Assembly: GCA_027328825.1 (NCBI GenBank)
Contig: DAHWTK010000002.1
Location: 1-44,960, forward strand
DNA length: 44,960 nucleotides
Reading direction: 5' to 3'
Origin: Nitrospirota bacterium
GTDB taxonomy: Bacteria; Nitrospirota; JACRHJ01
The notes beneath the pieces are model-generated. The model ran no database searches. It saw only the letters and a list, made by a program, of their open reading frames with translations, and had not been told where the DNA came from. Made by a program: the position numbers and the translations under genes. Below are positions 1-39,313 of the stretch, piece by piece (position 1 is the stretch's first letter; every line of letters begins with the position of its first letter).

Positions 1-1152
1 TGCCATAACCATGCCGGAAACATAGTTATTCGTCGTGGACATGTTCCCGAATGTCGCTTGAACACCCCCTTTAACCGGACCCGTAAGCGTGCCGCCGCTA
101 CGAGGCAATGCACCAGCCGCCATACTCCCGATGTTGCCGTAATAATTGTCGATGAAACCGTTTGAGCCGTTATTCGCCACAAACATTATTCCGCTTACGT
201 TTCCTAACGTCGCCTGGACGCCGCCTTTAACCGCTCCCGTCAGTGTTCCGCCTGTTACGGGAAACGCGCCAATAAACGCCGGCGTGTAATCGGACGCCTG
301 GGGTGCCACAGCCCCTGTGCGTCCGTTGAATGACGCAACTCCGGAAACGGACGCGGTTATCTCCTTCCGAAGACTCGACGTGGCGTTCTCGAAAATCACC
401 GCGTTAACAGGAACGTAACCGTTCCAGCTCATTGCCGTTATATTACCAAATGTTCCTTGGACACCGCCTTTTATCGCCCCCAACATCGTGCCGCCAGCGC
501 GAAGGAGCGCACCGTTATGCAGGCTCGACGTGGCGTTCTCGAATATCGTGGAGCTTATGGGCATATAACCATTCCATGCCAGTGCCGTTACATTACCGAA
601 CTTGCAATCACCGTTCACTTCCAGTTTGTGAGTCGGACTCACGCCAATGCCGACATTGCCGTCCGTAGGCGCGAGAATAATGCTGTCGTGATCTGTCTGA
701 TTGCCCTGAATATTCAAAAATCCGTTGACAACATCGCGCCAGAATGTAAATAGATAACCGGCAGTGGAACCGATAAGCAGGTTGTTCGCATTGTCGCTGA
801 TTAAATTAAGCGTGGTCGCCGTCATATTTCCGAACGTCGTACTAACGCCGCCTTTTATCGGGCCAAGCATTGTACCGCCTGCTACAGGGAGCGCCCCAAG
901 CTGGGCGGCCGTGTAGTCGTTCGCCATCGGAACCACCGCCCCTGTGCGTCCGTTGAATGACGCAACGCCGGAAACCGCCCCTACTATCTCGTGATGCAGG
1001 CTCGACGTGGAATTATTAAAAACATTATGATGCACATAGATGACGTTGGCTTCCTCTGGCGTAAGGCCGATCTCGCCCGCAGGGCATGGACGCGGCAATG
1101 TCGCCGCCGCTATCCCCGCAATTAGAACGATTACCGCAAAAAGTTTTTTCAT
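1..1152 (-). CDS. Exported tail-fibre-like repeat protein (first 384 aa; ORF runs off the left edge)
   Basis: ATG at 1152 preceded by GGAGG (5-nt spacer). Frame stays open to nt 1, so it is absent from the ORF track (no stop in window). N-terminus MKKLFAVIVLIAGIAAATL looks like a signal peptide. Two copies of SFNGRTGAV..DYT and four of GGT(M/L)xGxxKGG, motifs typical of phage tail fibres. Confidence 0.6.
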   Translation of the reverse strand, partial: MKKLFAVIVLIAGIAAATLPRPCPAGEIGLTPEEANVIYVHHNVFNNSTSSLHHEIVGAVSGVASFNGRTGAVVPMANDYTAAQLGALPVAGGTMLGPIKGGVSTTFGNMTATTLNLISDNANNLLIGSTAGYLFTFWRDVVNGFLNIQGNQTDHDSIILAPTDGNVGIGVSPTHKLEVNGDCKFGNVTALAWNGYMPISSTIFENATSSLHNGALLRAGGTMLGAIKGGVQGTFGNITAMSWNGYVPVNAVIFENATSSLRKEITASVSGVASFNGRTGAVAPQASDYTPAFIGAFPVTGGTLTGAVKGGVQATLGNVSGIMFVANNGSNGFIDNYYGNIGSMAAGALPRSGGTLTGPVKGGVQATFGNMSTTNNYVSGMVMA

Positions 1153-1161
1153 GATACCTCC

Positions 1162-3687
1162 TTATCGATACGCCGCCGAAAGTTCCGGAATAATATGTTC
1201 CCGGACGATCCTGCGCCAGTCCTGGCCGGTCTGCGCCGGAGTCCCCGCGGGCAGGTGAATGTGTATGCCTCCTCCGATGCTCATGGAACCCGCGCCCCGA
1301 CTGTTCTCTTCCGCCGTCATAACGCGCTCGCCACGGTGCAGGATAGCCCGATAGCCGTCGAAGGGGACGTAATCGAGGCCGGAAGCGTGGGAGCCGTCCG
1401 CGCCCCCCAAAAAACCTATCAGCTTGCCCGTCTGGTCGATGACGGTCGTGCTGATTTTGTCGAGCCTGCTGAGAATGGGATCGCCGAGCGCGGTCTTGAT
1501 GCCGGTAAGCAGATTAAAAACATAGGTGGACGTAAGCGATTCGCTGGTGTCTTTTAAATATCCCATCAGATCGCTTCCGGCGAGGAGCGAAGTCTTGACG
1601 CTGAACAAGGAATTCGCCGCCAGGTCGTTTGCGCTCAATGAGTTGTAAATTTTACCGAGATAGCCGCCCGCGCCTCCGCCGCCGCCCCCTAAATCCGGGT
1701 AGCCCCAGTCCGTCGCGCCCCAGCCGTCCGAGCCCCAGTTCGATGCGGGCGGGAGGAAGTTAAACATGCCGTCGAGTTCCTTCCCGAAAGTCGCGGAATC
1801 GAATTTGCCGCCCGCAAGACTGCCCTTTAAAACCGTTCGCTGAGTTGTCGCGGGCGCGGGACGATAATAGTTCTGCCACTCCGCGTTCACCCTTTGAAGC
1901 GTCGCCCCAGGGCCGCTTGTAAGTTTATGCAAGGCGCTGTTCTGCGACGCCGTGAGCACCGCCTCGCCCTGATGAAGCACCGCCTTGTAGCCGTCGAAGG
2001 GGACGTAAGACAGGCCGCCCGCATGGGAGCCGTCTGCTACCGTCGCGCCTGCGGGCATGGCGTCCATATCACGTGCGCCAAAGGCCATCCCAATTTTATT
2101 AAAGCCTTCCTGTACCCAGTCGTTGATACTTTTGCCGAATACGTGGAGACTGCCGATCCATTTTCCGATTTCCCATCCGGCGATAGCCGCCGCGACGATG
2201 GCACCCATCACTCCGGCGGCTTTTGAGAGGTTGCCGAGCATCCCCTCGAATTTTAAATTATTAATGGCGCCCAACGCCTTTCTGGCGGCCTTGGCTGCGC
2301 CGACTACACCACCTTTTCCGGTATCCATTAAAACTTTTATGACAAATTTTGTGCCGTCGAGAAGGTTGCTAAAACTGGCCTTGCCTAAACCTCCAAGAGC
2401 TTTAATCGCTTTTGTGGCCGCCTGAGCCGCGCCAAGAACACCGCCTTCTCCAACCCCGAATTCTTTTGCAATCTCTCCGATTGGGCCAAGTATCACTTTC
2501 ATGCCGCCGGCCAATACACCAATGCCGACAACAGACAAGATGCCATCGACCAACACGGGATGTTTCTCTATCTCACCTAAAACCGTGTTAAGCGCATGAA
2601 GCGGTCCGGATAAATCATCGTCGGCAAATTTAAACGCAATCGCATGGAGACCTTCCAGTTCGGCGGAAAACTTATGCGTCGCAGCAGCCGCATCTTTTGT
2701 AATCTGGTCGGTGCCTTTACCTTTATTAAGTAAATCGTCAAAAAATTTAAAATTCCCAGTTTTAGAAAACGGTATCTCAAAAGCGTTAACAGCGCGTATT
2801 GCCCGAATGTTAAACAATTTGGTTAATTTATCAAGGTTTCCCCCCGCTGCCGTGAGAATATCTTTCATCAAAACATCGATAGATCGGATAGCCGTCTTGC
2901 GCGAATTGGCCCATACTTTCACGCCGAGCGTTTTTTCTATCTTGTCGGCGTTTTTTATCAACTGGCGGCTGAGGTTTTCATAAGCCGTCGACGCTTCATC
3001 GGATGAGCCGGTAGCCGACCTAATAACAGTAAGCATGGCGCCCATAACGCGAGCGCCATCGGCGCCATGAAGGCCAATTTGAGCAGATGCCGCTGCCACT
3101 CTTTCGGCTTGCGAGGCAAATTGAGGCAGAACGAGGGCTCCTCCTTTGCCCTGCTCGTTCAAAGCGTTCAAGGCTTTAAGCATTTCGGGGCCGGCGGGGA
3201 TACCCATTTTTTTGTTTAGATCGGCAACTATGGCCCCCAAGTCCGACAAATTCGCGCCGCTTGCCCTCCCCGCGATTCCCATGTCGTGAACCGAATTAAT
3301 AGCAAGATTGACATCGCCGGTTTTTTCGATTATTTTGCTAACGCCCTCAAGAAGTTTTGACGGCATCATGTGCACATTGGGATCTGAGGCAGTATCCAAG
3401 ATGACTTTTTTAAGTTTTGCCATTTGTTCGGCGGACATATTGCCCGCCCGGCCTACGTCCGATAGTTTATCGTCAAAATTTGCGGCCTCTTTTGTTAATT
3501 CAGCAAAACCAGCCGCCCCTGCCAACGTAGCCCACTTGCCGCCCAAGGTGTCGAAGGACTGACCTATTTTGCTGAACATGGAGTGCGAGGTTTTTCCGAG
3601 ATGCTTTATCTGCCCCTCGAAGCTCTTGATCGTGGCCGCGCCGGTCTTGCCGTCCACCTTTATTTTCAGAACGATGTCCTGTGCCAT
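1162..3687 (-). CDS. Tail tape measure protein
   Basis: 841-aa ORF directly downstream of a G/GT chaperone pair. Helical Ala/Lys-rich N-half, Gly-rich hydrophobic middle, poly-Gly tract. ATG at 3687. Confidence 0.85.
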   Translation of the reverse strand: MAQDIVLKIKVDGKTGAATIKSFEGQIKHLGKTSHSMFSKIGQSFDTLGGKWATLAGAAGFAELTKEAANFDDKLSDVGRAGNMSAEQMAKLKKVILDTASDPNVHMMPSKLLEGVSKIIEKTGDVNLAINSVHDMGIAGRASGANLSDLGAIVADLNKKMGIPAGPEMLKALNALNEQGKGGALVLPQFASQAERVAAASAQIGLHGADGARVMGAMLTVIRSATGSSDEASTAYENLSRQLIKNADKIEKTLGVKVWANSRKTAIRSIDVLMKDILTAAGGNLDKLTKLFNIRAIRAVNAFEIPFSKTGNFKFFDDLLNKGKGTDQITKDAAAATHKFSAELEGLHAIAFKFADDDLSGPLHALNTVLGEIEKHPVLVDGILSVVGIGVLAGGMKVILGPIGEIAKEFGVGEGGVLGAAQAATKAIKALGGLGKASFSNLLDGTKFVIKVLMDTGKGGVVGAAKAARKALGAINNLKFEGMLGNLSKAAGVMGAIVAAAIAGWEIGKWIGSLHVFGKSINDWVQEGFNKIGMAFGARDMDAMPAGATVADGSHAGGLSYVPFDGYKAVLHQGEAVLTASQNSALHKLTSGPGATLQRVNAEWQNYYRPAPATTQRTVLKGSLAGGKFDSATFGKELDGMFNFLPPASNWGSDGWGATDWGYPDLGGGGGGAGGYLGKIYNSLSANDLAANSLFSVKTSLLAGSDLMGYLKDTSESLTSTYVFNLLTGIKTALGDPILSRLDKISTTVIDQTGKLIGFLGGADGSHASGLDYVPFDGYRAILHRGERVMTAEENSRGAGSMSIGGGIHIHLPAGTPAQTGQDWRRIVREHIIPELSAAYR

Positions 3688-3693
3688 AAACCC

Positions 3694-3736
3694 AAACCTC
3701 TAAAGTCGCTGGGTTCCCGCTTTCGCGGGAATGACG
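3694..3736. repeat. Family-A palindromic repeat, intergenic (gpT stop / TMP start)
   Basis: aaacctctaaagtcgctgggTTCCCGCtttcGCGGGAAtgacg. Near-identical copies at 4476, 14026, 16885 and 17056. Confidence 0.9.
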
Positions 3737-3737
3737 A

Positions 3738-4474
3738 TTATTTTTTATGCGCTCGCTCTGCCGCGTCCTTCATGGCCTTCTCATATATGATGTCCACCGC
3801 TTTCATCGCCAGCCGGAAAGTGTCCTCGCCGCAATCCTCGAAGAACCTGTCCATCACCCACGGGCCCAGACCGACTTCCTTCACGCTCAAAAGAGTTTCG
3901 GCCACGTCCCACGCCGCGAGAGCCGCCGGGAGCGGCCTCGGGTTCTTGCAGTTATCGCAGTCCGGCTCGTCTCCTATTTCCCGGTGGAGCGCCCGGCACT
4001 CGTATTTCCCCGGAAAGAGGCAGTCCACCCGGCCCGGGTTGTTTACCATCCACCGGGCGAACTCTACGAGTTTTTTTCCGTATACTCGCCGCCTTCCGGC
4101 ATCCCGGCGTCTGCTTTGGCCGGGAATATTTGCTCCTCGATGAAATCGAAGAATGGATACGAGTCGTCGCCGTCCTGAAAGTCGAGGAGCGCGAGCTTGT
4201 TCTCCTGGGTGCAGGGAAGCTCGACAGGCCCGGCGCCGTCTCCGCTGTCGGCCTTGATGCCCTTCCAGTCGAGGATCATTGCTGCATAGCTCTCGGCGTA
4301 GTAACGGTTCATGTCGGGCTTCTTGTCTTTGCCGTTACCTGCGGCGGTAAGCAACAGCGCCGCCCTTGCGCGCCGCCGGGTGAGCGGCTGGAGAAGGACC
4401 TGCGCCTCCTGGCCGTTGTATGTCCAGGTTGCCCAAAACGCCTCGCTTTTCTTTTTGTCGAGTTTTAAGTCCAT
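3738..4474 (-). CDS. Tail assembly chaperone gpGT-like fusion made by -1 frameshift
   Basis: The -1 frame from the A-run at 4070-4076 reads ..EKKLVEFARWMVNNPGRVD.. without stops into ORF 3738..4049. Position between major tail and TMP matches the conserved G/GT arrangement. Confidence 0.75.
4064..4474 (-). CDS. Tail assembly chaperone gpG-like
   Basis: 136-aa acidic ORF between the major tail gene and TMP, ending just after the slippery site. Confidence 0.75.
   Translation of the reverse strand: MDLKLDKKKSEAFWATWTYNGQEAQVLLQPLTRRRARAALLLTAAGNGKDKKPDMNRYYAESYAAMILDWKGIKADSGDGAGPVELPCTQENKLALLDFQDGDDSYPFFDFIEEQIFPAKADAGMPEGGEYTEKNS
4070..4076 (-). promoter_or_regulatory. -1 programmed frameshift slippery heptamer A_AAA_AAC
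   Basis: Zero frame reads ACG GAA AAA AAC TCG TAG. The heptamer fits X_XXY_YYZ, lies 2 codons before the gpG stop, and the -1 frame is open. Confidence 0.7.
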
Positions 4475-4475
4475 G

Positions 4476-4521
4476 AAAAACCCCCTAAAGTCGCTGGATT
4501 CCCGCCTTCGCGGGAATGACG
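4476..4521. repeat. Family-A palindromic repeat, intergenic (major tail stop / gpG start)
   Basis: aaaaaccccctaaagtcgctggaTTCCCGCcttcGCGGGAAtgacg. Confidence 0.9.
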
Positions 4522-4522
4522 T

Positions 4523-5959
4523 TTACAAAAACCAGATTGCCAGGTCGTCGTTACCGGCGTTGTAATACGGGTCCGCGTCGATTGTCAGGACGCGCTCGCC
4601 GGATTTGTCCGTTATCTTCGGGATCTTGAACGTCGTCTGCGGAAGGACCAGAGCGCAGACGTAGCCCGCCTTCGGGTTGCCGTTCGCGTCCATGGCGTAG
4701 CTCGGGAGCATCACCGCTTCCGACGTTATCGTCAGAGCGTCCCCGAAGAGGAACAGATCGCTCTGCCGGAAAAAGACTTCAAGCTTCGGCTTCAGGTCCC
4801 TTTCGCCGGGCGTGGCGTAGGACAGGACGTAGTCCTGCGCTATTGCCTCGTCCTCGTGGAACACGACCTTATTGTCCATGTCCACCTGGCCGGAAAGGAC
4901 GTTCATGGCCGCCCCGTTCAGGACCATCGTCCCGCGATGGCCCATGACTACCGTCCCGGACTCTACGCCCGCCGGTATCCAGGGATATACGTCTATTCCG
5001 TTCGCCGCCGTCCAGGCCTGCGCGCCCGTGCCCCTCGTCACCGTAAGGTCCGTCAGGTACGGGTTCGTGGGGCCGGCCCCGGCGTTCAGGGCCTTCCCGG
5101 TGACGATAAGCTTCGTCTCCGTGCTCGTCCCGTCGGAGAGGTTGAAACGCGCGCCGACGTCGAATTTCCGGCCGTCCTGCACCGTTACGACCGTCGCCGC
5201 GCCTGACGCGACGTCCGCATAAAGCGTGTCCGTGCCGCACCTGATGACGCGCTGGAAACCGGAACCCATGGTGAGCTCTACGTCCTCTCCGGGCTTTTTT
5301 ACGACCGAGATTTTGTCCCACACCGTGCCGAGATAAACGAAGACCTCGTCGTAAAAATCCTGCCAGACCGAGTAAGACGGAAGCTCGTCGGCGAGTGTAT
5401 AACCCACGGCGGCGTAAATGTTCGCCGTGGCGACGGGCGCGGCGGAAAATGCGGGGGCGACCGTGACGACGTTCGTTACCGCGTCTATCGCCGTTATGAG
5501 AGCAAGCTCCTGGTGCGCCGGGTTTCCGATATCCACGAGCACCGGTTGCCCGACAGAGAAGTTCGCGGGAGTACCGGGAAGGAAAGTCGTCGTCGTCGGG
5601 GCGGGAGCGGCCTGGACGGTATCCGCGGCGCGCGCGATCTTGTTCCCCATGCCGCCGTTCAGAAGCCTATCCTGAGGCGGAGCAGTCCCGGCGGTCCCGG
5701 AGACATACATGTGCGTCTTGAGGCTCCCGGTGCCGTGCTTGAGCATCCCAAGGAGCATCTTGCGTTTGCTCCGGGTCGCATGCGCGGCCTTGTCCTTCTT
5801 CAGGTCCGGCTCCTGGTCCCAGTTAGACGGGTCTATCGGGATAACGAGGTCTGTATTCGCCGGCTCGGCAATAGCGCCGTAACTCGTCTCCGGCACGACA
5901 AAGAAACGCTCCTTTCTGGACAGAGCGATATTGCTTGCGTTATATCTTTTCAGCGTCAT
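4523..5959 (-). CDS. Major tail (tube) protein with extra central domain
   Basis: 478 aa, ATG with GAGGAG RBS, immediately upstream of the G/GT chaperones. N-terminus ..FFVVPETSYGAIAEP.. resembles tail-tube N-termini. Called mainly from synteny. Confidence 0.5.
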   Translation of the reverse strand: MTLKRYNASNIALSRKERFFVVPETSYGAIAEPANTDLVIPIDPSNWDQEPDLKKDKAAHATRSKRKMLLGMLKHGTGSLKTHMYVSGTAGTAPPQDRLLNGGMGNKIARAADTVQAAPAPTTTTFLPGTPANFSVGQPVLVDIGNPAHQELALITAIDAVTNVVTVAPAFSAAPVATANIYAAVGYTLADELPSYSVWQDFYDEVFVYLGTVWDKISVVKKPGEDVELTMGSGFQRVIRCGTDTLYADVASGAATVVTVQDGRKFDVGARFNLSDGTSTETKLIVTGKALNAGAGPTNPYLTDLTVTRGTGAQAWTAANGIDVYPWIPAGVESGTVVMGHRGTMVLNGAAMNVLSGQVDMDNKVVFHEDEAIAQDYVLSYATPGERDLKPKLEVFFRQSDLFLFGDALTITSEAVMLPSYAMDANGNPKAGYVCALVLPQTTFKIPKITDKSGERVLTIDADPYYNAGNDDLAIWFL

Positions 5960-6188
5960 CGATCTTCTCCTCTTCCGCCTGCGGCTGTGGCGCGGGCTCC
6001 GTTACGTGTTCCTTTCCCATCCCGTCGCCCTCCGGGAGAGGGGCTGGTATTCGGGTTACCGTCCAGTCTTTTTCGCCGTCGAACGACCTGGCGATTTCCT
6101 CGCTTACCAAAAACCGCGTCCCCTTGACGAATACCCCGACGCCGTCTATCCTGACCTCGCCGGGTCCCTCGTATTTCAGTATCGGCAT
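5940..6188 (-). CDS. Hypothetical small virion-module protein (carries a family-B repeat in frame)
   Basis: ATG 6188 with GAGGTGAGG RBS, 82 aa. Confidence 0.5.
   Translation of the reverse strand: MPILKYEGPGEVRIDGVGVFVKGTRFLVSEEIARSFDGEKDWTVTRIPAPLPEGDGMGKEHVTEPAPQPQAEEEKIDDAEKI
6021..6044. repeat. Family-B palindromic repeat, in frame in CDS 5940..6188 (..PAPLPEGDGMG..)
   Basis: cccgtcgCCCTCcgggaGAGGGgc hairpin. Confidence 0.85.
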
Positions 6189-6192
6189 GTCC

Positions 6193-6681
6193 TCACCTCG
6201 AAAGAAGGTTTGTTTCCCAAAGTATCTCGATGCCCTTTACAACCGCGAACCTCGGATAATTGCTGCCCTCGTCGTACCCGGAGCCGAGCGGCTTTATCTG
6301 CTTGACGAGGCCGCCAAGGTTATCCGCCCGCTGGACGGCCTGGTCCACCAGCTCCTCAAGCGTCGTGACGTCGATAAAGCCGGGCTGGATATTCGGGAGT
6401 TCGCCTGAGTTCTCGCCATTGTTGAAAATCAGGATGTAGAGCAGGACCTTGTCGCTCATCTCGCCCATCATGCCGCCGATGAGCTTCGGCTCCTGCTCGA
6501 CACGGGTCATGAGGACCATCGGGCACATCTCCGCAGGTATCTCCTTCACTTCCCGGACGCCGTAGCGTATCGTGAGCGCTTTTCCGTACTGAGCCTGGCA
6601 GAATGCGGAGACGTCGGCGTCGGCGGTTATCGCGGCGGAAAGCGCGTCGAGGATGGATATGAAGGACTTATTCAAGGCCAT
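6193..6681 (-). CDS. Putative neck / tail-terminator protein
   Basis: 162 aa between the gp10-like gene and the major tail gene. Called from position only. Confidence 0.3.
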   Translation of the reverse strand: MALNKSFISILDALSAAITADADVSAFCQAQYGKALTIRYGVREVKEIPAEMCPMVLMTRVEQEPKLIGGMMGEMSDKVLLYILIFNNGENSGELPNIQPGFIDVTTLEELVDQAVQRADNLGGLVKQIKPLGSGYDEGSNYPRFAVVKGIEILWETNLLSR

Positions 6682-7120
6682 ATTTGTCCACCGTCTTTTT
6701 CAGTTCCTCGTCCGCGAAGCGAGGAGCGAGGCCGAGAAATTCCTTTGCGGGCGCCGACAGAAACGGGCGCCGCATCCCGATGACGCCGCCCAGTGCGCCG
6801 CGATGGACCCGGCCTTTCTCAATTGCGCCCGCGTATGCCGCCGAGTTCCCGACGTAAGCGACGCCCGGCTCAATGCGGAGTTTCATAAAAAGAGACCGCC
6901 GCAGGTGACCGGTTCGCACCGGGACGGGCCAGCCGCCGATTCCGGGATTGCGCCGATCCTTCGGCGCGATCCGCGGCCCCGACAGGTTGTCGAACGCCTT
7001 TTTGAAGACGTTCGTCGCGATCCTGCCGGCGATGTTGCTCGCCGTCTCGTCGGCGAGCGCCCTCTTCACTCCGGTGAGGGCGTTTAGCGCTTCCTGCGCA
7101 TGGAATTCGAAGCCGCTCAT
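6668..7120 (-). CDS. HK97 gp10-like head-tail joining protein
   Basis: 150 aa containing ..VRTGHLRRSL..VAYVGNSAAYAGAIEKG.., similar to the DTGxLRxS...YAxxVExG signature of the HK97 gp10 family. TAATG overlap with the upstream gene. Confidence 0.6.
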   Translation of the reverse strand: MSGFEFHAQEALNALTGVKRALADETASNIAGRIATNVFKKAFDNLSGPRIAPKDRRNPGIGGWPVPVRTGHLRRSLFMKLRIEPGVAYVGNSAAYAGAIEKGRVHRGALGGVIGMRRPFLSAPAKEFLGLAPRFADEELKKTVDKYGLE

Positions 7121-7896
7121 TACATATCCCCCGGGTCTGGCCCCGGAAGTGGAGGAGCTCCCGGGCCATAAGGCAAATCCTCAGGTAGAAACGACTGGCG
7201 CGGGAAATGACTCGACCGTGCTGTGATAGACGCAAAGGTCGATGGTCTCCCTGCGATACCCTCTATCCATTCGCAGGCCTTGTCGTACTCCGCGAGCGCG
7301 TCCTTTGCCGCCTGCTCCTCGGATAGTCCCACGCGGACATGCGCCTCCGCCGTCCCCTGGAACTCGCGGAGGAGCCTGGCCTTCCGCATCTGCCAGAGCT
7401 GAGCAACGGAAAGCTCGACAATGGCCTTGTTCGCCGCCGCGATCTGAAGCTCGTCGGTCGCGTTGATGATGATGTCATCGCCGTAACGCGCCCGGAGCTC
7501 GAGCAATTTATTGGCGACGATATTCGCGACCTTCGTCTGGAATCCGGCATTATCAGCCGGAGACAGCCCAAACATCGCGGGCGAGAAACCTCGGTCGATG
7601 ACATCCTGGATAAGGTCGGACTGCCCGACGGGCGCGGCTACGGTGGCGGCGTTCACACCGTAAACGAAGTTCCACTGCTGTTGCCCGACGGTAATCAGCA
7701 GAGAATATGCCCCACCCGTAGAAGGCGTGAAGCTCAGGGAATAAACACCCGGTTGACCGGCGACCGGCGTAACCGTCACGACGATAGCGGAGGCGTCGCC
7801 GTCGACGAGGACAAGATTTTTCGTAAAATCCACATCCGTAAGCCCGTCGGGCGCGCCGTAGAAAATGTCGGTTATCGTTTGTCCGGCAATATTCAT
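7120..7896 (-). CDS. Virion protein: beta-rich (Ig-like) N-domain plus helical C-half, possible head-tail adaptor
   Basis: 258 aa, ATG with GAGGA RBS. N-terminal ..VTVTPVAGQPGVYSLSFTPSTGGAYSLLITV.. looks Ig-like. Role inferred from position. Confidence 0.35.
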   Translation of the reverse strand: MNIAGQTITDIFYGAPDGLTDVDFTKNLVLVDGDASAIVVTVTPVAGQPGVYSLSFTPSTGGAYSLLITVGQQQWNFVYGVNAATVAAPVGQSDLIQDVIDRGFSPAMFGLSPADNAGFQTKVANIVANKLLELRARYGDDIIINATDELQIAAANKAIVELSVAQLWQMRKARLLREFQGTAEAHVRVGLSEEQAAKDALAEYDKACEWIEGIAGRPSTFASITARSSHFPRQSFLPEDLPYGPGAPPLPGPDPGDM

Positions 7897-7903
7897 GGGT
7901 TCC

Positions 7904-8704
7904 TCAATTCAAGACGCTCGCGTCTATCCACAGATTAAACCTGAGCACGGTGTTTATCATGGTGCCGTTTCTGATTTCGACCTCTGCCAGATATTTGCCA
8001 ACACGCAAAGAGGTATCGCTCGTCGATAAATTAATCAGGCCGGCACCCGTAGAGGCGTCGGTAACCTGCGCGGTAATGTCGCGGGCAGGGATTGCATACT
8101 GTGAGCTGATATAATTGGATTTCGCCCCGAACCAGACGGTATAACCCGTGATGTCCTTATTTACCGAATACGGTATCGATGCAGAGTCCCCATACGTCAC
8201 GTGGACGTCGTTGCCCTGGGCGACCGTCTCATAGGAAGCCGCGCCCTGGAACGGCAGGATCGTAATCGCTCCTGCGCCCCACTGGCCCGCGCCGTGGACG
8301 CTCGAAAGGTAGCTATTTATCGAGGTGGAGTTGACGTAGACCTGCGGTTCGGCTTCCACGTCTATCGATTCCGTCTCGCTGTCCGCATACATCCCCGTCG
8401 TGTTCTCGTAGGCGGTATAATGCGCGGAACCCGCCGGGCACGTGAACGACCCGCCGTAGACGCCCGACTGGCCGTCCGCCGGGACCATCGTAGTCGCCGA
8501 GCGGAAGACGGTGCCGTCCTGCCGGATAATCGTGAGCTTCGGCTTTAGGCCAGTAACACCCGCGCCCGCCGATGTAATCTGCAACCGGAGCGGTACTACG
8601 TCCCCCGGCGCGGCGACAATCGCCCAGGCTGTCCCGGCTATCAGCAGAGCGAGCGCGGCAAAAACGCCTGTCATTCTGAGCGTAGTGAAAAATCCGCTTT
8701 TCAT
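7904..8704 (-). CDS. Exported beta-rich protein
   Basis: ATG at 8704 preferred over the track's TTG at 8719 (GGAGG 6 nt upstream). N-terminus MKSGFFTTLRMTGVFAALALLIAGTAWA, whose first 12 codons are encoded by a family-C repeat. Confidence 0.6.
   Translation of the reverse strand: MKSGFFTTLRMTGVFAALALLIAGTAWAIVAAPGDVVPLRLQITSAGAGVTGLKPKLTIIRQDGTVFRSATTMVPADGQSGVYGGSFTCPAGSAHYTAYENTTGMYADSETESIDVEAEPQVYVNSTSINSYLSSVHGAGQWGAGAITILPFQGAASYETVAQGNDVHVTYGDSASIPYSVNKDITGYTVWFGAKSNYISSQYAIPARDITAQVTDASTGAGLINLSTSDTSLRVGKYLAEVEIRNGTMINTVLRFNLWIDASVLN
8670..8704. repeat. Family-C repeat, supplies the start codon and N-terminus of CDS 7904..8704
   Basis: gtcattctgagcgtagtgaaaaatccgcttttcat. Compare 9570-9604 and 35808-35839. 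Confidence 0.9.
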
Positions 8705-8731
8705 TTCATGCCTCCGCAAGGCCCGCAGTGT

Positions 8732-8747
8732 TCCCGAAATTTCGGGA
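8732..8747. repeat. Perfect 16-bp palindrome TCCCGAAATTTCGGGA (function unknown)
   Basis: Read directly. Lies about 30 nt upstream of the 8704 start, in the cytochrome / exported-protein intergenic gap. Confidence 0.5.
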
Positions 8748-8861
8748 CGCTCCGGAGCACCTCACAGCACCCCTTGTTAATCGGTTGGCCGTTGAACTGC
8801 CATACCGGGCAGGCGCTCACGAGGATTGCAGTTATCGTTTTCCAGGGCCGTCCGCGTTTTT

Positions 8862-9422
8862 TCATTTGTAAATACCCGTCGTGTTTAAATAGTTGAGGCC
8901 CGTATTATTTTCATAATGCGGGTTATGGCAATGCGGGCACTCGTATGCCTGCGACACCACCGGCGTCCCCCCCGACACCGCCGCGCCGGATTTAAACACG
9001 CTTATGGCCCCGGTCGTGAGGCTGTGCGAGGCAAGCGGTGCCGGGCCGTTGTAGACGCTCAATAATTTTGTCGATGTCAGCGTCATTTTCGGCGTCCCGA
9101 CGCCCGCGCTGTTGTGGCAGGACAGGCACGCGGAATCCATGTAGCGGACGTTCCCCAATATCCCCAAAACCCACCCGCGAGAGCTCCGATTGACGAACCG
9201 CGTCCTGTTGACGGTCGTATAATTCCGTATCAGCCCCCATACGCTTCCGCGCGCCGCATGGCACGCGCCGCAGTTGTTAGCGCCATACATGCTGGTATAG
9301 TTAGCGTGCGGCCCGGACACGGTTACGCCGTCCAGACGGTAGCTCGGCATGGCGGACGCGGCAACCACGGCCAGAAACAGCGTAACCGCCGCGAACGCGG
9401 ATATGGATACCGTGCGCCTCAA
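8862..9422 (-). CDS. Exported tri-haem c-type cytochrome
   Basis: Three CXXCH motifs (CGACH, CLSCH, CPHCH followed by NPH). Signal-like N-terminus MRRTVSISAFAAVTLFLAVVAASA. TTG start overlapping the upstream stop (TTGA), GGAGGG 8 nt upstream. Confidence 0.7.
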   Translation of the reverse strand: MRRTVSISAFAAVTLFLAVVAASAMPSYRLDGVTVSGPHANYTSMYGANNCGACHAARGSVWGLIRNYTTVNRTRFVNRSSRGWVLGILGNVRYMDSACLSCHNSAGVGTPKMTLTSTKLLSVYNGPAPLASHSLTTGAISVFKSGAAVSGGTPVVSQAYECPHCHNPHYENNTGLNYLNTTGIYK

Positions 9423-9604
9423 AGACTATGCCCTCCAAGCGGAGCAACGCTATAATCCCGGAGCGGGGCGGCAACCGCCGCCGACGCCCCGGAAACCGGC
9501 GCGGGAGACCCGTTCATATCGCCCATCCAGGCATACGCGCACCCGCCGAATACGGCGAGGAGCAGGAGTGTCATTCTGAGCGTAGCGAAGAATCTGCTTT
9601 GCAT
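9419..9604 (-). CDS. Small exported / lipoprotein-like protein
   Basis: MQSRFFATLRMTLLLLAVFGGCAYA.. The N-terminus is encoded by a family-C repeat. Start is ATG 9604 or TTG 9610. Confidence 0.4.
   Translation of the reverse strand: MQSRFFATLRMTLLLLAVFGGCAYAWMGDMNGSPAPVSGASAAVAAPLRDYSVAPLGGHSL
9570..9604. repeat. Family-C repeat, supplies the start codon and N-terminus of CDS 9419..9604
   Basis: gtcattctgagcgtagcgaagaatctgctttgcat. Confidence 0.9.
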
Positions 9605-9606
9605 CG

Positions 9607-10155
9607 TCAATACCTGTATAAAATCGTAAAATAATACGACGCCGGGCTTGCCCCGGTATTTGTAACGGTCGCCTCAATCTGGCTGTTGCCGTCCTCATTT
9701 ACGTATGGGATTATCCCCTGGCTGTCCTCGCTCCACATGGAGCCGTCGGCCACCAGACTGTTGAAGTTCGCCGAGCCGCAATACGTGTCCGAGTTATATG
9801 CGCCGCCGCGCCGGGCCGCGCGGGAGTAAAATTTCACCTTGCACGCAGAGTTAGCTGTCGCCACGGTTGACACCGATACAATCTCGACCTGATCCGGGTC
9901 GGTTATCGCCGCACCCGCGGTGAGCACCGGCACGGTCACATCCACGGACGCCCCCGCAGCGAGGCTCCCGGCGTCGATGTGCGCAATGCCGTATTGATAT
10001 TTTACGAATATCGGCGTCGACGCCTCGGTGCGGATGCCGAGCGTTTTTGTCGAGGCATCGTATGTGAGGTTCCCCAGGTTCACCTCGCCGGCGTAGGCAT
10101 AAATCGACCATATTGCTGACGCCAGCAATATGGTTATCGCAAATAATTTTTTCAT
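9607..10155 (-). CDS. Exported protein of unknown function
   Basis: Trimmed to ATG 10155 (AGGAG RBS). MKKLFAITILLASAIWSIYAYA signal peptide, beta-rich mature part. Confidence 0.6.
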   Translation of the reverse strand: MKKLFAITILLASAIWSIYAYAGEVNLGNLTYDASTKTLGIRTEASTPIFVKYQYGIAHIDAGSLAAGASVDVTVPVLTAGAAITDPDQVEIVSVSTVATANSACKVKFYSRAARRGGAYNSDTYCGSANFNSLVADGSMWSEDSQGIIPYVNEDGNSQIEATVTNTGASPASYYFTILYRY

Positions 10156-10252
10156 ATCGCTCCTTTCGATTCTCCGTTTATGCCGCCCCCTGAATCCCCG
10201 GCTCATTTACCGGATATTGCGTCAAGGCTCCGGGAGCGGCGAAAAGGGAGAG

Positions 10253-10654
10253 CTACTGAATTATCCCCTTCGTCCGGAGCGCGCCGACGGTGGACGTGAT
10301 GAAATTGTCCAGCGTGTTCGCGTCGATTCCGGTGGCTGTGGCTACGGCGCCGAGATTGTCCGTTACCGCGCTTTCGGCGGACTGGATGCCGGTCTTTTCC
10401 AGGCCGGAAAGGATCGTCTTGGCCGCGATGTCCTTTTTGTTGGCGCCCGCGGGCGCGGATGCCGCCGCCACGACGCCCTGGATAACGAGGTTCGGAAGCT
10501 GAGGCGCTTCTTTCTCGATTGCCGCTTTCAGGACGTGCCAGGTCCAGAGGCCGACTTCCTCCAGCGCCGTCAATGTCTTTTTGCCTGCGCTCTCGACGAA
10601 AGCCGAGACCTCTCCGATAAGCTGCTGCCCGGGGCTTTTCTGTTCCTCTGACAT
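10253..10654 (-). CDS. Hypothetical protein
   Basis: Trimmed to ATG 10654 (GGAGGG RBS), abutting the stop of 10656..10871. Confidence 0.5.
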   Translation of the reverse strand: MSEEQKSPGQQLIGEVSAFVESAGKKTLTALEEVGLWTWHVLKAAIEKEAPQLPNLVIQGVVAAASAPAGANKKDIAAKTILSGLEKTGIQSAESAVTDNLGAVATATGIDANTLDNFITSTVGALRTKGIIQ

Positions 10655-10655
10655 A

Positions 10656-10871
10656 TTACCCTCCTGTGAAAAATCTTCTGACTGCTCTCCCGACCTTCCG
10701 CCAGTAGGAAGGCTCGTCCCAGTCGCCTTTTCCTGAAACCTCAAAAAAAACGCCTTGACCGCCTGTGGTGTCCTGTCCATCTTTCGGTTTCCCCTTCACA
10801 TCTACCGAGATGCCGATGTCCTCGCCCTCGATGCCGTCGCTGTCGTCCAGTTTCAGGTCTAACCGGGCCAT
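10656..10871 (-). CDS. Hypothetical acidic protein
   Basis: 71-aa ORF with ATG 10871, directly after the holin-like gene. Confidence 0.4.
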   Translation of the reverse strand: MARLDLKLDDSDGIEGEDIGISVDVKGKPKDGQDTTGGQGVFFEVSGKGDWDEPSYWRKVGRAVRRFFTGG

Positions 10872-10875
10872 TTAT

Positions 10876-11334
10876 TTATATTCCAGGAAATTCAAATAAG
10901 TGAAAACAGCCTGACAGCATAAGCGCAACCAGAACAAAACCGGTCAAGAATAACACTTTAAGACGCGCAAAACCCTTGTCGTTAAACGCCGTCATCTTGT
11001 CATCGGAAAGTTCCGAATGCTTTGCTGTGATAGTGGTTGCGGCGGCGTCATAACTCGGCGGATCCAGACCCGCGTCCGTCATCATCTTTGTGTAGAGCTC
11101 CACGGCCTGGTCGAGCTTCTGTTTGCCGCTCCAGCCGTTCAATTTTCCGGACGCCTCGGCAGCGCGGACCGCCTTCTCCGCGAAAAGGCCGCCAGCGACG
11201 GCCACGTCCTGGATATACTTCGGCTGTTTTTTCAGCCAGCCGACGTACCACTTCATGCCGAACTTCATGGCCAGTCCGATAATCGCCGACGCGCCTATCA
11301 ACCCGATCGCCGCGTGGATTAAGTAGTTCTGCAA
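10876..11334 (-). CDS. Holin-like membrane protein (LL-H-like layout)
   Basis: TTG start with GGAGGTG RBS. N-terminal TM (AAIGLIGASAIIGLA), ..AEKAVRAAEASG.. helix, C-terminal hydrophobic segment. Lies next to the endolysin. Confidence 0.45.
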   Translation of the reverse strand: MQNYLIHAAIGLIGASAIIGLAMKFGMKWYVGWLKKQPKYIQDVAVAGGLFAEKAVRAAEASGKLNGWSGKQKLDQAVELYTKMMTDAGLDPPSYDAAATTITAKHSELSDDKMTAFNDKGFARLKVLFLTGFVLVALMLSGCFHLFEFPGI

Positions 11335-11346
11335 AACGCACCTCCT

Positions 11347-11799
11347 TTATGCAAGCGGCTCGCGCGCAACCTTTTCGAGATTCGCGAGCCTGTTCAACCA
11401 ACCCGACAAGAACCGGGCTTCTTTAGGTTTGTTCTTCGCTATCGTCTCATAACGAAGCTTTCTGATACCGATGAAGGCGTTCCAGTCGTCGCCCGCAGCC
11501 GCGAGCATATTCCGCGCGGTTCCCTCGCCCATGTTCACTGCGGTATCGAATACCAGCAGACACAAAGGCCAGGAAAGCTTGTCGCAACCCGCGAGTTTCC
11601 AGTAATTATTGAAATACAGGTCTTTCGCGGCGGCGAGAGCATCACCTCTCGACATGGTCATCATGCGCTTCACAAGGTAGGGGTAATACCTGCCTGAGAC
11701 ACCGAAGATAGTCAGACCGCCGGGGTCGCCCTGGAGGTTCGATTCGTAACCCTCCTCGCCGACGACCACGGAAAAAGATTTCTCAAATTCAGCGCTCAT
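11347..11799 (-). CDS. Endolysin, GH108-type muramidase with peptidoglycan-binding C-half
   Basis: ..VVGEEGYESNLQGDPGGLTIFGVS.. matches the EGGY..D.GG.T..GI motif. ..FDTAVNMGEGTA.. and ..GWLNRL.. match the associated PG-binding region. Confidence 0.8.
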   Translation of the reverse strand: MSAEFEKSFSVVVGEEGYESNLQGDPGGLTIFGVSGRYYPYLVKRMMTMSRGDALAAAKDLYFNNYWKLAGCDKLSWPLCLLVFDTAVNMGEGTARNMLAAAGDDWNAFIGIRKLRYETIAKNKPKEARFLSGWLNRLANLEKVAREPLA

Positions 11800-11996
11800 A
11801 ATGTCCTCTCGTCTTCTTCCGGAGCCAGGAGCGCGTCCAGGTCAGTGAATGCCTGGCGCGCGCGGGCCTCAAAATTAATGCACGCCTGGGTTGGGCCGCC
11901 TTCGCGGTCGCAGCGCATCGCCGGGTCCATACAGGCATAGGCGTTCCCGAAAATGTGTTTTACCTCGGCGATCTGCTCACGGGTGAAGGTAACCAT
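11796..11996 (-). CDS. Hypothetical protein in lysis cassette
   Basis: 66 aa, with ATGA/TAATG coupling to both neighbours. Confidence 0.45.
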   Translation of the reverse strand: MVTFTREQIAEVKHIFGNAYACMDPAMRCDREGGPTQACINFEARARQAFTDLDALLAPEEDERTL

Positions 11997-12262
11997 TATG
12001 TTTTCTTAAGCTCCGAAAGCCAGGAACGGAAATCATCTTTTACTTCCTGAAGCGCATCGTGGAAGTCTTTTTTTACATCCTTAATAAAACTCTCAAGGTT
12101 GGCCTTCTCCGCCGCCTGGGCGCGCTTGCATTCCGCGCATTTCTCGGTCAGATCGCGTTTTGTGACGAACTTATTCATCGTCATGTAGAAACCGGCGATG
12201 ATGCCGAGAAGCGAACCGATGACGGTACACGATGGAATCACTATGGCGGCCCAGGTCGGCAT
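11996..12262 (-). CDS. Single-pass membrane protein with coiled coil (holin/antiholin or spanin-like)
   Basis: N-terminal TM AAIVIPSCTVIGSLLGIIAGFYM followed by a charged helix. GGAGGG RBS. Confidence 0.45.
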   Translation of the reverse strand: MPTWAAIVIPSCTVIGSLLGIIAGFYMTMNKFVTKRDLTEKCAECKRAQAAEKANLESFIKDVKKDFHDALQEVKDDFRSWLSELKKT

Positions 12263-12277
12263 CCGTTCGCCCTCCTC

Positions 12278-12832
12278 TTACCACTGATTGTCGCGGCCTT
12301 CCGTCACGTAAAAATCGACTGCGCGGTTGCCGGATCTCGTAAATGAAACAGCCAGTTTATTGGCGCAGACAGGGATTGTAATCGCGCCGTCGTGAGTGAA
12401 ATCCATACCCGTCGCACCGACGTAATAAAGAGACCATGGGCCGCTGTCGGTCGGCGCGGTATAGATTTTAAAATGACTAGGCGAGATGTCCGAATAGCCG
12501 CCGAAACGATATGCGTGGCCGGCCGTCTTCCCGGATGCCGTGGAATAGTTGTACCAGCCGCCGTAAACGCCTTTCCACTGGATGGTGGCGTAACGCCAGC
12601 CCGCGATGTCCCATATTTCGCCGTTGCCGGTAGACTGGACGTTGTAGTTCGTGTCCAGGATATTCATCGTCCCGCTGAAGTCGAACTGCTCGACGCCAGA
12701 GACGCCGGTCCAGTTCGTATATCCGGCGGTGGTGGTCTGCGACGCCGTGCCGCCGGTAAACCTGTCCGCAAAAGCGGAGACGGCCATGATGCTTATGAGC
12801 ATCGCCGCCATGAAAAACAAGAATTTTTTCAT
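12278..12832 (-). CDS. Exported beta-rich protein
   Basis: Trimmed to ATG 12832 (GGAGG, 5-nt spacer), because the track's longer ORF overlaps the capsid gene. MKKFLFFMAAMLISIMAVSAFA signal peptide. Confidence 0.6.
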   Translation of the reverse strand: MKKFLFFMAAMLISIMAVSAFADRFTGGTASQTTTAGYTNWTGVSGVEQFDFSGTMNILDTNYNVQSTGNGEIWDIAGWRYATIQWKGVYGGWYNYSTASGKTAGHAYRFGGYSDISPSHFKIYTAPTDSGPWSLYYVGATGMDFTHDGAITIPVCANKLAVSFTRSGNRAVDFYVTEGRDNQW

Positions 12833-12890: not shown

Positions 12891-14006
12891 TTACGCGGCC
12901 ATCGGCAAGCGCTTGAACTGTTTCGGGTTGCCAATGCCGAAATTGTATTGTTCCTTGCCGACCATCTCCTCGGACTTCTTGAAGATGTCGCGCTGCCCCT
13001 CCATCTGAAGGTCCATCCACGTGCCCATCTTCGTCTGGTAAAAAGGAAGCACCACGTAGAAGCGCGTCTTGTCCTTGAGCCTCCTGGTCGTGATGATGTT
13101 GTCGATGGTGTAGTTTATCCGGGAGACCTTCTGCTCTGCCTGGGCGAAGGGGTTCAGGAGCGAGTCCAGGGCGAACGCGATCGCCTTGAATGCCTCCGGC
13201 GGGCAGAGGATGTTGAAGCTCGGGTTATCCGGCAACCCGTAGCCCATGTACTCGATGTCATAGACCATCTGGATACAGGCGTTGTCGATGGTCGTGATGA
13301 GGTTCGTGTCGTAGGCAAAGTCCACGCCGTTATTCGGCAGGATGTTGCCGTTCGCGTCCTTACCGAGCGCCTCGATGAGGCCGTAGGCCAGGGAAGTTTT
13401 GAGCATCTGCCTCTTCAGGCGGAACTGCTCCAAAACGTCGTCCATCTTCCAGAACCACTCGAACTCCCACCAGTCGTCCAGGAAACCGATGGCGGCCATG
13501 AAGTTCAGGTAGTAGACCGCGAGTATCTGCGACTTGTCTCCGACACCGCCGACCGTTACCTTCTCGCCCTCGCCGACCTGCTGCCAGACGATGGAGTCCG
13601 TGGCGGAGTCTATCGTAAAGTGGTCTTTGCGCGTTCCCCTCATGTCCACCGGTTTGTATATCTTCTCGTACCCCAGATCGGGCGCAAGCGCGCCGGTGAT
13701 GTACCGCTCAATCATGAACGGGTCCGGGGCCTGCGTCAGAGGCGTCCCGCCTCCGGTGCCAGGCGCGGCGAAGGGATAACCCGACGGGGCGGGGATGTTA
13801 TCCTTCATGCCGCCCGCCATCCACGCCTTGAGCATCATGGCCGACATAACCCTTCCGGAGTCTGCACCCAGCCGCGGGTCGGGCGTTTTCAGGTAGGCGT
13901 TTATCGCGCCCACGAACTTCTTTGTCTCTTCGGGCGTCCAATCCCTGGGCGTCCTTCCGCCCATGGACTGCATCATTTTCGCCCACTTTATCTTCGGTGC
14001 GAACAT
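12891..14006 (-). CDS. Major capsid protein
   Basis: 371 aa, strong GGAGGG RBS. Position after portal, protease/scaffold and the DUF2190-like gene. Confidence 0.7.
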   Translation of the reverse strand: MFAPKIKWAKMMQSMGGRTPRDWTPEETKKFVGAINAYLKTPDPRLGADSGRVMSAMMLKAWMAGGMKDNIPAPSGYPFAAPGTGGGTPLTQAPDPFMIERYITGALAPDLGYEKIYKPVDMRGTRKDHFTIDSATDSIVWQQVGEGEKVTVGGVGDKSQILAVYYLNFMAAIGFLDDWWEFEWFWKMDDVLEQFRLKRQMLKTSLAYGLIEALGKDANGNILPNNGVDFAYDTNLITTIDNACIQMVYDIEYMGYGLPDNPSFNILCPPEAFKAIAFALDSLLNPFAQAEQKVSRINYTIDNIITTRRLKDKTRFYVVLPFYQTKMGTWMDLQMEGQRDIFKKSEEMVGKEQYNFGIGNPKQFKRLPMAA

Positions 14007-21458: not shown

Positions 21459-21531
21459 TGGAGCGGGCGGAAGGAGTTGCACCTTCGCCTCCGGCCTGGT
21501 GGGACGGCGCTATACACTTAGCTACGCCCGC
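21459..21531 (-). ncRNA. tRNA-like element / degenerate tRNA ending in CCA
   Basis: The minus strand GCGGGCGTAGCTAAGTGTATAGCGCCGTCCCACCAGGCCGGAGGCGAAGGTGCAACTCCTTCCGCCCGCTCCA folds as follows:
- perfect 7-bp acceptor stem and U8
- 4-bp D stem
- 5-bp T stem with 7-nt loop
- 17-nt anticodon arm with one T:C mismatch
Atypical points: C33, no GG in the D loop, G55. Confidence 0.4.
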
Positions 21532-35777: not shown

Positions 35778-35807
35778 TCGATCTCTTTAAATTTCGTAAC
35801 GCTATAA

Positions 35808-35839: not shown

Positions 35840-35907
35840 GGTTGTTGCGGCCCGGAGGTGCGGCCCTCCGGGACTGTTATCCCGTCCGAAGGGGGTGAAC
35901 GGGAAAC

Positions 35908-39304: not shown

Positions 39305-39313
39305 GGAGCCTCT

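Follow-up and report, generated by a model that had tools for sequence, protein, structure and literature searches.

The window analysed here, by which we mean the whole of the 44,960-bp metagenomic contig DAHWTK010000002.1 from a mine-drainage sediment sample, is a temperate tailed phage according to family searches of its proteins, and nearly all of its genes lie on the minus strand. Seven genes of its late operon begin with N-termini that are, as predicted from sequence, almost certainly functional Sec-type export signals, and these genes are closely packed with the virion and lysis genes on one strand. We hypothesize, with a probability of about one half, that the signals mark a set of late proteins directed to the periplasm and acting on the host envelope, and not parts of a virion assembled in the cytoplasm. 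Where late operons of phages are known to encode exported proteins, these are isolated morons or lysis factors. The novelty here is a conserved, phage-only, multi-gene exported set, which includes a tri-haem cytochrome family without cellular relatives and which travels among unrelated virion types; the phages concerned are those of little-studied sediment bacteria. If its members act on the envelope, they would constitute a new class of phage-host interface factors built of receptor-binding modules; if they join the virion, they would break the rule that tailed-phage particles consist entirely of cytoplasmic proteins.

The seven genes, with the family names used below, are:

12278..12832, minus strand: family A, a 184-amino-acid (aa) beta-rich protein, predicted to be exported, right downstream of the major capsid gene; cleavage at about VSA/FA-DRF
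9607..10155, minus strand: family B, a 182-aa jelly-roll protein, predicted to be exported; predicted cleavage between AYA and GE
9419..9604, minus strand: family C, 61 aa, consisting of a signal peptide and a mature peptide of about 36 aa (WMGD...PLGGHSL)
8862..9422, minus strand: family D, a 186-aa tri-haem c-type cytochrome (by sequence) with signal peptide and TTG start
7904..8704, minus strand: family E, a 266-aa two-domain protein, predicted to be exported, with a C-terminal BppU_N-like immunoglobulin (Ig) domain; cleavage between AWA and IVAAPG
1..1152, minus strand: 5' part (384 codons) of the gene for a fibre-like protein, predicted to be exported, directly behind the tape-measure gene and running into about 486 bp outside the window
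44367..44957, minus strand: SP196, a 196-aa protein, predicted to be exported (ALA before DYTVNKPM), upstream of the tail-tip genes

Start sites and predicted export signals

All seven open reading frames (ORFs) lie on the minus strand at the coordinates given in a preliminary description of this DNA, with the N-terminal peptides that it quoted and called textbook signal peptides. We scored them with a crude home-made test for the tripartite n/h/c pattern, which demands an n-region of net positive charge, an uncharged h-region of at least 8 residues whose Kyte-Doolittle values average 1.9 or more, and small residues in positions -3 and -1. All seven pass, so that they are signal-like as described; those at 8704 and 9604 are partly encoded by hairpin repeats. 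Among the 59 curated genes of the window, 12 pass; in the chance controls (0.5-2.5%) it is 1 of 198 internal methionine positions and 4 of 162 non-gene ORFs. When applied to phage lambda, the same test picks out 5 of 68 genes, namely those for the envelope proteins Lom, Rz, Rz1 and Bor, and RexB. Signal-like N-termini are about three times more frequent in the window than in lambda, and its morphogenetic operon holds seven of them compared with lambda's one.

Good ribosome-binding sites with the right spacing precede five of the seven starts (1152, 8704, 9422, 10155 and 12832). Upstream of 1152 there is AAGGAGG at 6 nucleotides (nt) and an in-frame TAA at 4 codons; GGAGG stands upstream of 8704; and the start at 9422, which is TTG and not ATG, is preceded by GGAGGG and overlaps the stop of the ORF before it (TTGA). 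The start at 10155 has AAGGAG, and an in-frame ATG at 10206 is without a Shine-Dalgarno sequence and is used by no homologue. GGAGGG serves the start at 12832, right behind a GC-rich hairpin downstream of the capsid stop, and the upstream TTG at 12934 falls within the capsid gene. The start at 9604, located 2 nt past the stop of the upstream gene, has a weak Shine-Dalgarno sequence only. The start at 44957 is 3 nt from the window edge, with its upstream region beyond the window, and the homologue P0023 aligns from residue 1. The preliminary description had warned that upstream in-frame starts could make the hydrophobic stretches internal. The candidates at 10206, 12934, 8719 and 9610 are not credible, because they have no Shine-Dalgarno sequence, lie inside the capsid gene, or contain the Shine-Dalgarno sequence of the true start; the real starts stand. 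In a second assembly of this phage, genes called independently have identical starts for the five that are covered (184, 182, 61 and 186 aa are listed), and homologues start at the equivalent residue.

The gene at 44957, assigned earlier to the same operon in spite of its position at the other end of the window, does belong there. A 640-bp unitig bridges window positions 44884-44960 and 1-77 with 486 bases absent from the window; the genome is therefore continuous across the window ends, and the right-hand tail cluster continues the late operon, in the order tape measure, fibre-like protein, SP196, p149, hub. A gapless circular contig was rejected, since terminal overlap is absent and the bridging unitig holds the 486 extra bases. 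Read depth is about 1,000 over window 1-880 and 44884-44960, against about 85 elsewhere (roughly 12-fold), and 10 single-nucleotide polymorphisms lie within window 579-777. The 3' portion of the fibre-like gene is thus common to far more abundant relatives in the sample, and so are the initial bases of the gene after it.

Two of the signals take their n-regions from dispersed repeats:

8677..8704, minus strand: copy of the type-2 hairpin repeat, GATTTTTCACTACGCTCAGAATGAC, encoding the n-region FFTTLRMT of the E signal
9577..9604, minus strand: copy of the type-2 hairpin repeat, AGATTCTTCGCTACGCTCAGAATGAC, encoding the n-region FFATLRMT of the C signal

The type-2 repeat AGCAGATTCTTCGCTWCGCTCAGAATGAC has three copies, at about 8677-8704 (minus strand), 9577-9604 (minus) and 35805-35840 (plus). 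At the same positions in the lineages L002, L008 and P0004/5 stands a related repeat, here called the first repeat, which reads (W)[IV]PAFAGMT. Dispersed hairpin repeats can thus become part of signal-peptide coding sequence. Contigs of relatives often stop near the starts of C, D and E, where the repeats lie.

Besides the seven, five more window genes pass the signal test. Those at 32625, 33143, 38699 and 39314 are credible, and form two pairs (GC3, GC content at third codon positions):

32625..33478, minus strand: two early-region signal genes, for a 173-aa lipoprotein (lipobox ALVSC) and a 111-aa protein; GC3 0.44-0.46
38699..39679, plus strand: two signal genes beside the integrase gene, for a 201-aa protein (GC3 0.42) and a 121-aa protein resembling an oligonucleotide/oligosaccharide-binding fold (GC3 0.58)

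The four genes at 32.6-33.5 kb and 38.7-39.7 kb have the atypical composition of morons, and the pair at 38699-39679 look like recently acquired ones. The fifth, at 18582-20630 (minus strand), is doubtful. It encodes a 682-aa probable large terminase with a Walker-A-like GAEVGKT and no Pfam or PHROG match, and its signal-like N-terminus, at a GTG start, is probably a miscalled start.

The signal-bearing families and their spread among phages

Judged by its sequence, D is a tri-haem c-type cytochrome, with every hallmark present. It scores 36.1 bits against Pfam Paired_CXXCH_1 (PF09699; gathering cutoff 20.6) and 26.6 bits against NCBIfam TIGR01905 (cutoff 25.2). Three CxxCH motifs are invariant in eight D homologues of 29-100% identity, and are present in the lineage L007 too; H39, M45 and H169 are likewise invariant in the eight, offering one candidate distal ligand per haem, and their pairing with particular haems is one that we infer. 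All D homologues have a hydrophobic N-terminus; six of the eight pass the signal test, and in the remaining two the hydrophobic stretch lies behind a repeat-encoded extension. Attachment of haem in c-type cytochromes occurs only after Sec export. If D is a c-type cytochrome it needs to be exported, which supports its signal independently of the N-terminal sequence.

The similarity of D to c7-type and nanowire-type cytochromes is weak. The c7/PpcA-type proteins (Paired_CXXCH_1) share with D a Sec signal, three CxxCH motifs, His/Met distal ligands and a C..CH.PH motif; D is about twice their size per haem and is found only in phage late operons. Searches with the cytochrome profile recovered no relative among representative genomes of 185,579 species in GTDB, one locus in IMG/VR, and one JGI metagenome locus that is the same phage as L003. 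Only about 10 relatives occur in 5.8 billion proteins, with a phage context for all on contigs long enough to judge. Given this distribution, D is not a recently captured host gene. Sequence searches of the PDB with D and with the fibre-like protein returned haem-motif-level or insignificant matches only, and D has no full-length similarity to a solved structure.

C precedes D and is conserved in L002, L007, L008 and L011, with a longer form in L003. The 4-nt C/D stop/start overlap (TTGA in the window) is kept in five lineages: the window, L002, L003, L007 and L011. The mature start of C is conserved directly past the predicted cleavage, WMGD following A[WY]A.

Family A is rare, with only 7 relatives in 1.84 billion cluster representatives. 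Its homologues (L003 8002-8487, L008 6881-7330, P0069/70/73/74) show an MKK start and then a hydrophobic stretch, and four of the five small ones pass the signal test. The protein behind the capsid gene in L007 was considered as a further member and rejected: homology is undetectable, and it is a positional analogue only. In family B all seven homologues pass; their first 22 residues vary freely, and mean identity jumps to 78% right past the predicted cleavage site. The AlphaFold2 (AF2) model of B, with a mean confidence score (predicted local distance difference test, pLDDT) of 63, is a beta-sandwich that would resemble TNF-like lectins and fibre knobs, at low confidence.

Family E is the largest, with 36 homologues, 29 of which pass the signal test; most of the other seven are fragments, lipobox forms or transmembrane-anchored forms. 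P0030 and P0031 have a lipobox (LLQGC) in place of a cleavable signal, and in L003, L007 and P0035 a Cys-rich, zinc-finger-like cytoplasmic domain with a transmembrane anchor replaces the signal. The latter proteins (L003 10591-11784, L007 6666-7289 and P0035) carry an N-terminal C-x10-11-C-x9-12-C-x2-C pattern and xGMTEE before the transmembrane helix and periplasmic domain, and their topology is anti-sigma-like. The conserved mature start of E is IVA[AS]PG, past cleavage after AWA. The preliminary description had spoken of Ig-like proteins, and E is one. Its residues 160-262 are modelled by AF2 as an Ig domain with pLDDT >90, Foldseek matches this model to Ig domains of the phage 80alpha and NF5 baseplates, and the C-terminal domain of the homologue P0018 scores as BppU_N (36.5 bits against a cutoff of 23.1).

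The tail-fibre-like product of the preliminary description is the protein starting at 1152, which has PHROG tail-fibre repeat matches and a 398-aa homologue in the L013 prophage. That homologue has a hydrophobic N-terminus as well and extends 157 aa beyond the window end point. Residues 1-123 of SP196, signal included, are 56% identical to residues 1-125 of P0023 (E = 6e-51), and the conserved mature start of this type is DFTV after ALA. The N-domain of SP196 recurs fused to an E-type C-domain in other phages, and many E members combine an SP196-like N-domain, PTNPLL..D.RL..LD repeats and an E-type Ig domain. No Pfam, PHROG, NCBIfam or PADLOC family matches A, B, C, E or SP196. In families A, B, D and E, alignments and the signal test show that the signal regions diverge yet keep the physico-chemical pattern, and that the mature parts are conserved. 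Whether homologues in other phages carry signals, a question raised at the outset, can be answered: nearly every full-length homologue of A-E and of the fibre-like and Ig-like proteins has an N-terminus that is divergent but signal-like.

Families A-E were defined by BLAST clustering of the neighbours of cytochrome genes, and their homologues occur in at least eight lineages of phages or prophages whose head and tail modules are unrelated. A stands right behind the capsid gene, and B, C, D and E follow in this order further downstream; wherever the contig is long enough to judge, the cytochrome homologue belongs to a phage late operon. Six distinct morphogenetic backgrounds have the cassette inserted, and close relatives without it were not found. 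Apart from the window these backgrounds include L003, a Mu-like myovirus (the same phage as L012); L002, with a P2/Mu-type contractile tail; L008, with a lambda-like GpA terminase and a ClpP-capsid fusion; L011, with a Mu-protease-capsid fusion and SU10 adaptor; and L007, an IMG/VR contig. In the window, L007, L008 and L011, the genes for endolysin and holin and a pair of small conserved ORFs stand directly before B-C-D-E; in L003 the cassette is found between the capsid and Gp36 adaptor genes, with no lysis genes adjoining. The prophages L013 and L015, which lie in bacterial contigs, show the order hub, lysis cassette with spanin-like genes, fibre-like gene, E-type gene, GIY-YIG-like gene, host DNA. 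In both, the fibre-like and E-type proteins bear signals, and this pair stands at the prophage end. The spanin-like lipoproteins of these two prophages (L013 8563-8796, L015 7484-7660) each have a CxxCH motif, HCVDCH and HCIECH, a possible haem or metal site in o-spanin-like proteins.

GC3 of A-E is 0.66-0.75, equal to that of the neighbouring structural genes, and this match to the phage backbone indicates long-term residents. A promoter and terminator scan of 7.0-13.1 kb gave no matches above shuffled expectation. Families A-E thus lack the marks of a moron, which are a promoter or terminator of its own and atypical composition. As to hosts, the only hints are two E-family proteins labelled as from a Nitrospirota or Nitrospirae metagenome-assembled genome. 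A sigma-54 regulator beside L013 was tried as a guide to the host and proved uninformative, with 39-46% identity across many phyla. We take the hosts to be diderm bacteria of mine-drainage and groundwater sediments, possibly Nitrospirota.

Where the signal-bearing proteins would act

According to the scheme that we favour, the proteins would be made late, at the same stage as virion and lysis proteins, and the Sec system of the host would export them. In the periplasm the maturation system of the host would furnish D with haem, and C and D, which appear to be translationally coupled and probably pair, would be made in equal amounts. The proteins would then act at the host envelope instead of entering particles in the cytoplasm. 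Several appear to fold like adhesins or receptor-binding proteins (tail-fibre repeats, a BppU_N-like Ig domain, a TNF-like jelly-roll), for which binding or masking envelope components would be the most economical function, and it is the job we consider most likely. The outcome could be superinfection exclusion, or progeny could be kept from re-adsorbing to debris; D would contribute a redox or electron-transfer component.

Five observations favour such an envelope role. The cassette moves among unrelated virion types, as lysis cassettes do and docking parts do not; the set usually adjoins lysis genes or the prophage end; its members swap the signal for a lipobox or transmembrane anchor, as would suit periplasm-facing proteins; the hub has a carbohydrate-binding module of its own; and the backbone-like GC3 of A-E and the lack of cellular relatives of D speak against recent capture of a metabolic gene. 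The preliminary description had offered three possibilities, that the proteins modify the cell envelope before lysis, attach to particles after release, or form an extracellular structure. Portability, lysis neighbours and anchor swaps lend weight to the first, and we retain the second as a rival.

The closest known counterparts are Lom and Bor of lambda, which are likewise signal-bearing, encoded in or at the end of the late region of a temperate phage and recovered by the same heuristic, and which act in the host envelope and not in the virion. In L013 and L015 the fibre-like and E-like pair behind the lysis cassette at the prophage end has the position of lambda bor. Lom and Bor differ in that each is encoded by a lone gene, has homologues in cells and is under expression signals of its own, whereas the window has at least seven genes, five of them in conserved phage-only families, with structural-gene-like GC3 and no detectable promoter or terminator. 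Llp of T5, Cor of phi80/T1, and Spackle and Imm of T4 are exported or lipid-anchored as well, exert their effect from the periplasm or outer membrane and are often encoded beside receptor-binding genes, and some E members are lipoproteins too. These known exclusion proteins are small and single-domain, in contrast to the multi-domain proteins with fibre and Ig modules and the cytochrome seen here, and no sequence similarity connects the two (PADLOC, Pfam). PblA and PblB of the Streptococcus mitis phage SM1 are likewise tail-fibre-like proteins that end up on the bacterial surface. They are not known to have signal peptides, and reach the surface following holin/lysin-mediated lysis.

A number of points weigh against the envelope reading. 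The domain content and modular shuffling of the set are as in real virion appendages. The same is true of the gene positions, with A directly behind the capsid gene, B-E immediately ahead of the head-tail adaptor gene and the fibre-like gene behind that of the tape measure. L013 and L015 are compact prophages, and they have no fibre-like genes except those whose products bear signals. PADLOC gave no match to defence or exclusion families for any of the seven proteins, B and the N-terminal domain of E are poorly modelled by AF2, and metatranscriptomes of the same study have no coverage at the locus except on repeats. Nor does the envelope reading give a reason for a cytochrome alongside receptor-masking proteins.

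Several of these points would suit a different arrangement, in which the proteins, including the haem protein, mature in the periplasm and join heads, necks or tail tips at holin opening or after lysis. By sequence and model the set has the makings of receptor-binding proteins, with putative fibre repeats in 1-1152 and predicted Ig and jelly-roll folds. To the full-length fibre-like homologue, the BppU_N-type Ig domain and the fibre-knob-like jelly-roll can be added a gene order that mirrors virion order: A past the capsid gene, B-E before the adaptor gene (Gp36 in L002 and L003), and the fibre-like protein and SP196 between tape measure and hub. Fusion of the SP196 N-domain to the E C-domain amounts to modular exchange, the roughly 12-fold read depth of the fibre region is that of a module common to several phages, L013 and L015 have no other fibre-like genes, and pick-up after holin triggering is physically conceivable. 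The baseplate proteins TP901-1 (lactococcal) BppU and that of 80alpha have Ig domains of the same type as the C-terminal domain of E. In BppU, however, this domain is N-terminal, there is no signal peptide and assembly takes place in the cytoplasm of a monoderm host, all of which differ from E. At its N-terminus the protein starting at 1152 has a predicted signal peptide in place of a recognisable virion-attachment domain. Against assembly onto particles, unrelated capsid and neck proteins make a common docking site unlikely, lipoprotein and transmembrane-anchored members are hard to fit into particles, and the hub's carbohydrate-binding module could itself serve receptor binding. We know of no precedent for periplasm-matured appendages in tailed phages, and our literature search turned up neither signal-bearing virion proteins of tailed phages nor phage cytochromes in structural operons. 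Altogether we consider assembly onto particles after export unlikely. Its boldest form, a haem-containing appendage of A and B-C-D-E, with fibres of the fibre-like protein and of SP196/E-type proteins that are likewise matured in the periplasm, such that virions would bear a covalently haem-loaded cytochrome c, we hold to be less likely again.

Another explanation starts from the cytochrome and makes B-C-D-E a periplasmic electron-transfer unit that sustains host respiration or metal redox late in infection or in the lysogen, the other signal proteins being unrelated morons. Periplasmic cytochromes are central to energy metabolism in mine drainage, the habitat of this phage, and D looks like a bona fide tri-haem cytochrome with weak c7- and nanowire-type affinities and is translationally coupled to C. 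Against it, no cellular homologues exist as a source of capture, the folds of A, B and E are adhesin-type without cofactor motifs, and haem density is low, at 3 haems per about 160 residues. We find this account improbable.

Proximity to the lysis genes suggests yet another role, that of substitutes for spanins or regulators of lysis in the periplasm, through which disruption of the envelope would be completed or timed in a host with an unusual outer layer. In four lineages B-C-D-E stand right behind p71 and p133 and the endolysin and holin genes, an obvious spanin pair is missing from the window, and the spanins Rz/Rz1 are likewise periplasm-facing late products encoded beside holin and endolysin genes. 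Unlike spanins, B-E have neither coiled-coil architecture nor, in the window, a lipobox, and are beta-rich, so that they do not qualify as spanins. L015 has an overlapped i-spanin/o-spanin-like pair and L013 a small spanin-like lipoprotein, yet both keep the fibre-like and E-like signal proteins, and in L003 the cassette stands apart from lysis genes. We rate a lysis function as less probable still. Finally, that the hydrophobic N-termini stem from wrong starts, repeat insertions or uncleaved anchors of cytoplasmic proteins, as the two repeat-encoded n-regions, the weak ribosome-binding site at 9604, the TTG at 9422 and the flagging of the doubtful terminase might suggest, is very improbable in view of the five strong and rightly spaced Shine-Dalgarno sequences, the concordant independent gene call, the signals of homologues without the repeat, the export that a cytochrome requires and the low pass rate of the chance controls.

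Neighbouring genes and other features of the genome

Family searches in the window identified a portal fused to a MuF-like domain, protease/scaffold, cement, major capsid, Neck1/tail-completion and tape-measure proteins, a 1013-aa hub with a carbohydrate-binding module, a GH108 endolysin, an LLH-type holin and an integrase. The genes that adjoin the signal-bearing set are:

12891..14006, minus strand: major capsid protein, no signal; PHROG 24071 at 65 bits; tblastn match to Microcystis phage MACPNOA1
1162..3687, minus strand: tape-measure protein, no signal; PHROG 28 and 794, both tape-measure families
40877..44367, minus strand: tail-tip genes, p149 (43918-44367) and the 1013-aa hub (40877-43918); no signals
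10253..12262, minus strand: lysis-type block between A and B; Pfam Glyco_hydro_108 at 58 bits and Phage_holin_6_1 at 26.7 bits
Lysis-block genes, minus strand: TM88 protein (11996-12262), a 66-aa ORF, and the GH108 endolysin (11347-11799, by Pfam)
Lysis-block genes, continued, minus strand: Holin_LLH-like 152-aa protein (10876-11334), p71 (10656-10871) and p133 (10253-10654)

The capsid protein has no Pfam match, its similarity to the Microcystis phage is weak only, and no capsid relatives were found in IMG/VR. The N-terminal CBM_4_9 domain of the hub scores 35.4 bits in Pfam. By BLAST clustering the hub is homologous to L007 8427-11105, and a NIIYG..V.CPAV motif, read by eye, is common to it and L013 4997-7573. 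In the lysis block, p71 and p133 are kept upstream of B in L007, and 67- and 133-aa genes occupy the same place in L008. A clear spanin pair was not found in the window. The holin-like 152-aa ORF at 10876-11334 (minus strand) has a second hydrophobic stretch and a lipobox-like LMLSGC 9 residues before its stop, which could be a remnant or an embedded tiny lipoprotein. Directly downstream of E, a 258-aa protein at 7120-7896 (minus strand) has no signal peptide; its C-terminal half resembles a head-tail adaptor, and its N-terminal Ig-like segment is weakly similar to the N-domain of E (E = 0.005, in a small database).

The first hairpin repeat, ...AAAGTCSCTGGRTTCCCRCYTTCGCGGGAATGAC, with the stem TCCCGC/GCGGGA, occurs at about 3685-3735, 4470-4520 and 16873-16923 on the plus strand and at about 17040-17106 on the minus strand. 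Two copies lie in intergenic spacers of tail genes, and an inverted pair lies in frame inside the 774-aa portal/MuF ORF, within the interdomain linker (DSHFRGNDK, VIPAKAGTQ). Metatranscriptome contigs of the same study match this repeat only. In-frame insertions reading ...PSPSGRG..., ...PLPEGEG... and ...LPGEGQGVR... in terminase-, methylase-, primase- and recombinase-like ORFs (at about 19700, 24760, 32200 and 36200) look like a third dispersed repeat tolerated within coding sequence.

By motif reading, the 45-kb genome has three tyrosine-recombinase-like genes, at 27090-28130 (minus strand), 35908-36783 (minus) and 39676-40761 (plus). The one at 35908-36783 is overlapped at its 5' end by an int-alpA RNA motif from Rfam (36640-36705, minus strand), which scores 43.9 bits where the gathering threshold is 35.8. 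The phage also carries a tRNA-Gly gene at 21459-21531 (minus strand), with the unusual anticodon ACC according to ARAGORN.

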